A DNA stretch of 246 bases, taken from NCBI RefSeq assembly GCF_003334385.1, contig NZ_QOWN01000222.1; one strand, given 5' to 3'. The position numbers were made by a program, and so were the translations under genes. A model generated the notes under the pieces. It worked only from the letters and a program-made list of their open reading frames with translations, searched no databases and was not told the origin of the DNA. Below are positions 1 through 246 of the stretch, piece by piece; positions within the stretch are counted from its first letter, which is position 1, and the number at the start of each line of letters is the position of its first letter. Origin of the DNA: Escherichia coli (GTDB lineage Bacteria; Pseudomonadota; Gammaproteobacteria; Enterobacterales; Enterobacteriaceae).

Positions 1-29
1 ATACATGATCAAATACTCCTTACATAAAT

Positions 30-36
30 AAGGTGA
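30..36 (+). promoter_or_regulatory. Shine-Dalgarno-like ribosome binding site (AAGGTGA) for the transposase start codon
   Basis: Seen in sequence: purine-rich AAGGTGA at 30-36, about 4-5 nt upstream of the ATG at 41. The same frame is closed upstream by TAA at 29-31, so ATG 41 is the first start codon in that frame after a stop. Confidence 0.55.
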
Positions 37-40
37 ACAA

Positions 41-246
41 ATGGAACTTAAAAAATTGATGGAACATATTTCTATTATTCCCGATTACAGATAAGCCTGG
101 AAAGTAGAGCATAAATTGTCAGGCATCCTACTATTGACTATTTTTGCCGTTATTTCTGGTGCAGAAAGTTGGGAAGATATAGAGGATTTTGGGGAAACAC
201 ATCCCGATTTTTTGAAGCAATATGGTGATTTTGAAAATGGTATTCC
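41..246 (+). pseudogene. ISAs1-family transposase (H-repeat-associated protein), N-terminal region, interrupted by an in-frame TAA at 92-94; the frame continues past the 3' window edge
   Basis: Manual translation from ATG 41 gives MELKKLMEHISIIPDYR, then a stop, then [50 protein letters not shown] in the same frame. From memory this matches the conserved N-terminus of enterobacterial ISAs1-family transposases (for example the E. coli YhhI/YbfD/YdcC H-rpt proteins), which have Gln where this sequence has the stop. The only stops in this frame in the window are at 29-31 and 92-94. No alignment was run; the identification is recalled. Confidence 0.7.

Follow-up and report, generated by a model that had tools for sequence, protein, structure and literature searches.

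The window, by which we mean the whole 246-nt stretch of E. coli DNA analysed here, has a GC content of 33.7% and, judged from its sequence, is the 5' part of a defective E. coli H-repeat copy, an allele of the ybfL-type pseudogene of K-12, which would very probably lie directly 3' of an Rhs locus. The H-repeat, listed in ISfinder as ISEc1, is a member of the ISAs1 family, and the classical H-repeat of Rhs elements reportedly goes back to work on K-12 that Hill and co-workers published in the 1990s. The window covers H-repeat positions ~104-349 of the 1,290-bp element, and neither element end is inside it. The features are given below in window coordinates.

1-40, plus strand: leader of the H-repeat ORF (H-repeat positions ~104-143), read from the sequence
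41-91, plus strand: transposase codons 1-17 (MELKKLMEHISIIPDYR), by translation; the same 17 residues as in K-12 ybfL
92-94, plus strand: in-frame stop (TAA) that closes the ORF early, at codon 18; copies without the stop have CAA (Gln)
95-246, plus strand: codons 19-68 and part of codon 69, the remainder of the N-terminal DDE_Tnp_1-associated domain (PF13808, NF033564)
116-118, plus strand: in-frame TTG, codon 26, where the ybfL pseudogene feature of NC_000913.3 starts (position 9901 of locus L002 corresponds to window position 116)
79-190, plus strand: 'ybfL-type' diagnostic 5' block, ~20 clustered substitutions relative to the intact copies yhhI and ydcC (ORF nt 39-150)
190-211, plus strand: three polymorphic sites (190 T, 204 C and 211 T) with the states of the neighbouring ybfD copy
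189-216, plus strand: terminator-like hairpin and T6 run within the ORF, from a consensus scan and folding; probably a chance structure

The interrupted transposase frame

The ORF begins at an ATG preceded, at a spacing of 5 nt, by a Shine-Dalgarno-like AAGGTG at 30-35. At the closest locus, L001, the window corresponds to 12001-12246 and the left terminal inverted repeat to 11898-11915, from which we judge that the left end of the element would be ~103 nt upstream of the window. With the stop replaced by Q, the window peptide matched Pfam PF13808 (DDE_Tnp_1_assoc) over residues 8-68 (E 6.4e-20) and NCBIfam NF033564 ('ISAs1 family transposase') over residues 29-68 (E 1.6e-10, 40.7 bits). The latter score is under the whole-protein cut-off of 70 bits because the window spans just 40 of the 314 profile positions; the intact full-length paralogue yhhI scored 412 bits on the same profile. 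The DDE_Tnp_1 catalytic domain of the ISAs1-family transposase falls outside the window, and in relatives the ORF runs for ~310 further codons beyond its end. Across the sampled loci, aligned H-repeat copies (ybfQ, ybfL, ybfD and others) were 92-99.6% identical to the window, and those without the stop 92-95%. The two profile matches and these identities bear out the H-repeat (ISAs1-family) assignment already made in the first-pass annotation.

The TAA interrupts the frame at codon 18, a stop that the first-pass annotation did not point out, so that the window copy cannot give rise to a full-length transposase and lacks the open frame expected of an autonomous insertion sequence (IS). The closest-match CDSs carry the PGAP label 'internal stop', and we infer that the window copy is likewise a pseudogene and a non-functional, passive relic. 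The in-frame TTG at 116 is a possible but unsupported re-initiation codon; no convincing ribosome-binding site could be read from the sequence before it.

Other candidate features of the window were not retained. No Rfam family was found in the window on either strand at E<=1. Two promoter-like sites were rejected, as shuffled sequence gave as many. The hairpin at 189-207 followed by T6 was rejected as a terminator: its folding energy was -8.2 kcal/mol (z = -1.7), and 12 of 200 shuffled sequences were equally stable. Polymorphic sites 190 and 204 sit in the stem of this hairpin. Two ORFs of 29-30 aa on the minus strand, both overlapping the transposase frame, were rejected as having no support.

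Distribution and closest matches

By megablast, the window was matched in 5,211 of 5,426 complete E. coli genomes, at 23,499 places in total (median five per genome), of which 20 were on plasmids. All of the matches lay beneath features annotated 'ISAs1 family transposase'. None of the 5,426 genomes matched the 246-nt window at 100%, and an exact 150-mer of the window had zero matches in species-representative genomes and metagenome contigs. The best matches, identical at 245 of 246 positions, came from seven records, namely five K-12 MG1655-derived genomes (CP010441-45) and two environmental strains, while ybfL (b0705) of NC_000913.3 was identical at 243 of 246 positions and had the TAA at codon 18 in common with the window. 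The window is a sequence variant, by one to three SNPs, of a pseudogene long annotated in the K-12 reference.

The stop codon itself is widespread within the species. An exact TAA-bearing 67-mer (window 62-128) was present in 2,673 records, or ~49% of complete E. coli genomes, whereas an exact 57-mer spanning the TAA was absent from all 100,044 species-representative genomes. Examples of the 67-mer are found at L001:12062-12128, L005:12062-12128, L010:7001-7067 and L018:6001-6067. The TAA allele, which was seen at three Rhs sites, is not a private lesion.

Genomic context of the TAA allele

The surroundings of the allele were read from 18 TAA-allele loci in relatives, consisting of the best whole-window matches and an even spread of the 67-mer matches, with identities to the window of 98.4-99.6% over 246 nt. 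In all 18 an Rhs locus had the copy at its 3' end. Annotated Rhs core genes or fragments were present upstream in 17, and a 48-nt remnant of an rhs start was found in the remaining one. Eleven of the loci were at RhsC, where the copy follows rhsC-ybfB-orphan rhs-ybfC-ybfQ or a shorter rhs-ybfC-ybfQ arrangement. Five were at the ansP-pptA (RhsE/H) site, where dsORF-h1 and an 'RHS element core protein' precede the copy and pptA comes directly after it, and two were at a T6SS-linked site, after Rhs fragments and between the T6SS gene cluster and yafV. The junction of ybfC, ybfQ and a second H-repeat was found in 2,764 genomes at a coverage of at least 80%, and that of dsORF-h1 and an H-repeat in 977 genomes. 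In K-12, all H-repeat copies are Rhs-linked, RhsB with yhhI, RhsC with ybfQ, ybfL and ybfD, and RhsE with yncI and ydcC.

The remnant belongs to strain NCTC11476, whose copy is at the ansP-pptA site, with ansP directly upstream and the Rhs body lost; the retained 48 nt of the rhs start (ATGAGCGGAAAACCGGCGGCGCGGCAGGGCGACATGAC..., coding MSGKPAARQGDM) abut the left end of the element. The same 48-nt start with its MSGKPAARQGDM codons lies directly upstream of the left inverted repeat with and without an Rhs body (L017:5755-5850 in NCTC11476; L016:996-1043 and 5755-5842 in ECOR29, where the Rhs body is present). This stretch may be where an old deletion or insertion ended, next to the IS terminus.

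The anatomy of the closest locus, L001, is that of a typical Rhs composite. Its RhsC gave 10 Pfam RHS_repeat (PF05593) matches at E<=0.001 together with an RHS domain (PF03527), and the PxxxxDPxGL motif reads PISNIDPLGL at residue 1238, with a GC content of 41% in the tip versus 61% in the core. The tip is followed by two small AT-rich ORFs, ybfB (31% GC) and ybfC (37% GC), and the orphan ybfO is made up of a core fragment with the variant motif PVQYIDSMGL and a tip of its own. At the T6SS-linked site, the corresponding motif in the Rhs fragment is PIQVIDPMGL. The element itself ends in 18-nt inverted repeats, CAGGGAAAGATCACGTAA and TTTCGTAATCTTTCCCTG, which are 89% complementary and map to 11898-11915 and 13170-13187, 1,290 bp end to end. 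Partial H-repeats adjoin it on both sides, ybfQ being truncated at about position 380 and ybfD lacking its first ~27 nt, and because the three H-repeats abut one another no simple target-site duplication was readable at L001. Host genes flanking this locus have a GC content of 53-56% versus 34-40% for the H-repeats.

Much of what the first-pass annotation had expected outside the window was thus found in its relatives. An Rhs-locus context, which it had proposed on general grounds, is borne out by proxy in 18 of 18 loci, and the items that it had suggested looking for in the flanks are present at L001, namely rhs core (YD) repeats, the PxxxxDPxGL motif, small orphan toxin/immunity ORFs (AT-rich ybfB and ybfC, and the core-plus-tip fragment ybfO) and an 18-nt pair of IS terminal inverted repeats. 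Its use of low GC as a sign of acquired DNA also holds, with the window at 33.7% against host flanks at 53-56%; Rhs genes flank the copy in relatives, and the host genes there are not AT-rich. Its expectation that novelty would be found in the flanks did not stand, as the flanks of the relatives are the long-described K-12 RhsC, RhsE/H or T6SS-Rhs loci.

Mosaicism among H-repeat copies

Apart from the TAA, full-length relatives have an open frame of 1,137 nt (378 codons). Comparing TAA-bearing and intact H-repeat copies in pairs gave a dN/dS of 0.05-0.13, a range that, taken alone, would not look like that of a decaying pseudogene. The distribution of variable sites suggests a different origin for this signal. 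All examined TAA copies have one identical 5' block (ORF nt 1 to ~150), the same at three different Rhs loci, which differs from intact yhhI and ydcC at ~20 clustered and mostly synonymous positions; in the first 100 ORF nucleotides, yhhI and ydcC show 11-13 differences from ybfL. The 3' parts of the TAA copies are haplotypes of intact copies in varied combinations. On this pattern the H-repeat copies are clear recombination mosaics, and dN/dS is low in the TAA copies because recombination with intact paralogues carries over the constraint signal. Purifying selection on the TAA copies was accordingly rejected as evidence of function, their variable sites being mosaic with those of intact copies. 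The mosaic comparison can be followed in L002:9826-10962, L010:6980-8116 and L018:5980-7116 against the intact copies L019:7379-8515 and L020:7817-8953.

Gene conversion between paralogous H-repeats would account for both the mosaic 3' parts and the allele differences at 190, 204 and 211, and the 190-211 patch of the window looks like a short gene-conversion tract. A related difference was seen between genomes of laboratory lineages. Two ybfL sites differ between CP010441-45 and NC_000913.3, both toward the state of the adjacent ybfD (L001:12190-12211 versus L002:9975-9996), which reflects either gene conversion in these lineages or mis-assembly of paralogous repeats.

We considered whether the TAA allele is retained for a function, as a throttle on the transposase, as a source of an N-truncated protein started from TTG 116, or as a homology patch for Rhs tip exchange. 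The abundance of the allele (2,673 records have the exact 67-mer, which amounts to roughly half of the complete E. coli genomes), its presence at three Rhs loci, the otherwise open 378-codon frame and the dN/dS of 0.05-0.13 all point in that direction, but the low dN/dS is accounted for by mosaicism and gene conversion and does not reflect independently constrained evolution. Moreover, 3' truncations are common among the TAA copies, TTG 116 has no convincing ribosome-binding site upstream, and the authors of the E. coli W genome, referring to previous studies, state that H-repeat transposition has not been observed (PMC3032704). A retained function is therefore highly improbable. Slightly more doubtful still is a related idea in which the 'ybfL-type' 5' block would be a maintained module that slows translation, supplies a truncated regulator derived from the transposase, or serves as a recombination handle; if the last version were true, the block would help Rhs tips and orphan cassettes to move between loci.

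Assignment to an Rhs site

Reading the window as a passive ybfL-type relic leaves the question of where this particular copy is sited. From the relatives we infer an Rhs context for it: the copy would most likely have its place in the chromosome of an E. coli or Shigella strain, immediately 3' of an Rhs polymorphic-toxin locus. The likeliest site would be RhsC, with the window in the second of three tandem H-repeats, in the order rhsC-ybfB-ybfO-ybfC-ybfQ-ybfL-ybfD-ybgA.

Two observations together favour RhsC. The four distinct genomes or lineages that differ from the window at one position are all RhsC-linked, and in them the order is rhsC, ybfB, an N-terminally truncated rhs (ybfO), ybfC, ybfQ, the match, ybfD and ybgA. 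In addition, the T, C and T of the window at 190, 204 and 211 are the states of ybfD, and ybfD neighbours ybfL at RhsC only. Other TAA alleles have C,C,T; C,T,C; C,T,T or T,T,C at these sites, and the T/C/T combination together with the TAA block was found in no complete genome. The same defective allele could instead be located at another Rhs site, either ansP-pptA (RhsE/H) or the T6SS-linked Rhs beside yafV. Alleles with two mismatches were found at RhsC and also at the ansP-pptA site; TAA copies with two to four mismatches occur at the two alternative sites in O43 RM10042, 07-4299, O178:H19, S40, ECOR29, NCTC11476, E2865 and VL7S7, and the dsORF-h1-H-repeat junction is present in 977 genomes. 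However, every one-mismatch match is at RhsC, the ybfD-like states at 190, 204 and 211 fit ybfL's neighbour at that site, and the RhsC-type junction is about three times commoner than the dsORF-h1 one. We thus regard another Rhs site as unlikely, though a serious competitor; RhsC is favoured by about two to one over the other Rhs sites.

A position outside any Rhs locus, for example on a plasmid, among O-antigen or other polysaccharide genes, or in a different enterobacterial species, would be far more surprising. H-repeat relatives do occur in O-antigen clusters of Salmonella and Vibrio cholerae, 20 of the 23,499 window matches are plasmid-borne, and the exact window sequence was matched in none of the genome and metagenome collections scanned. 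Nevertheless, the diagnostic TAA block was at an Rhs site in every one of the 18 loci sampled, and the absence of the 57-mer from the 100,044 species-representative genomes speaks against a wide host range of the TAA allele, which leaves this explanation with very little probability. The NCTC11476 element, which has no Rhs body alongside, is a point against the Rhs-context explanation.

Comparison with known systems

The nearest known counterpart of the window is K-12 ybfL, the middle of the three H-repeats at RhsC, which has the ATG, the TAA at codon 18 and the diagnostic 5' substitutions in common with it. The two differ by one to three substitutions; these fall at 190, 204 and 211, and the window shows the ybfD states there. 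The intact copies yhhI (RhsB-linked) and ydcC (RhsE-linked), as well as genes of other strains annotated 'ISAs1-like element ISEc1 family transposase', represent the same element with a 378-codon ORF. Like the relatives of the window, yhhI and ydcC lie 3' of an Rhs element; unlike the window, the intact copies have CAA at codon 18 and an open frame and are free of the ybfL-type block of ~20 substitutions.

With the ISAs1 family at large, the window has the transposase family in common (NF033564, PF13808). Members of this family are single-ORF ISs of ~1.2-1.3 kb with short terminal inverted repeats. ISAs1 is from Aeromonas salmonicida, and IS1358 and H-repeat relatives are found in O-antigen clusters of Vibrio and Salmonella. 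These members from other genera are distinct, and are active or linked to polysaccharide clusters, whereas the window represents an E. coli, Rhs-linked and inactivated form.

Literature on ybfL, or on H-repeat, ISEc1 or ISAs1 together with Rhs, was mostly irrelevant to the window; PMC10711316 concerns ISEc12, and a mobilome preprint mentions ISAs1 briefly. For the Rhs loci themselves, a C-terminal displacement model has been put forward (Jackson et al., 2009; PMC2935791), in a paper that makes no mention of the H-repeat. The full-length Rhs tip of strain 2011C-4251 is the displaced orphan ybfO of K-12 (501 of 507 aa identical), with ybfC directly after it, as this model predicts. The RhsC locus of 2011C-4251 (L006:6670-12799) is also simpler, a single hybrid H-repeat with a ybfL-type 5' part and a ybfD-type 3' part replacing two copies. 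2011C-4251 and K-12 form a natural before-and-after pair, both for the displacement of C-terminal tips and for recombination between H-repeats in tandem.

The flanks of the relatives match the anatomy of the E. coli Rhs composite, with its core ORF, AT-rich tip, downstream ORF, orphan tips and H-repeat. Their neighbour genes are textbook K-12 Rhs components, and there is nothing new in kind; a mildly useful by-product is a view of how paralogous IS relics at Rhs loci homogenise via gene conversion. The window itself differs from the composite in containing no rhs sequence, and represents only the IS-like passenger with which the composite ends on its 3' side.
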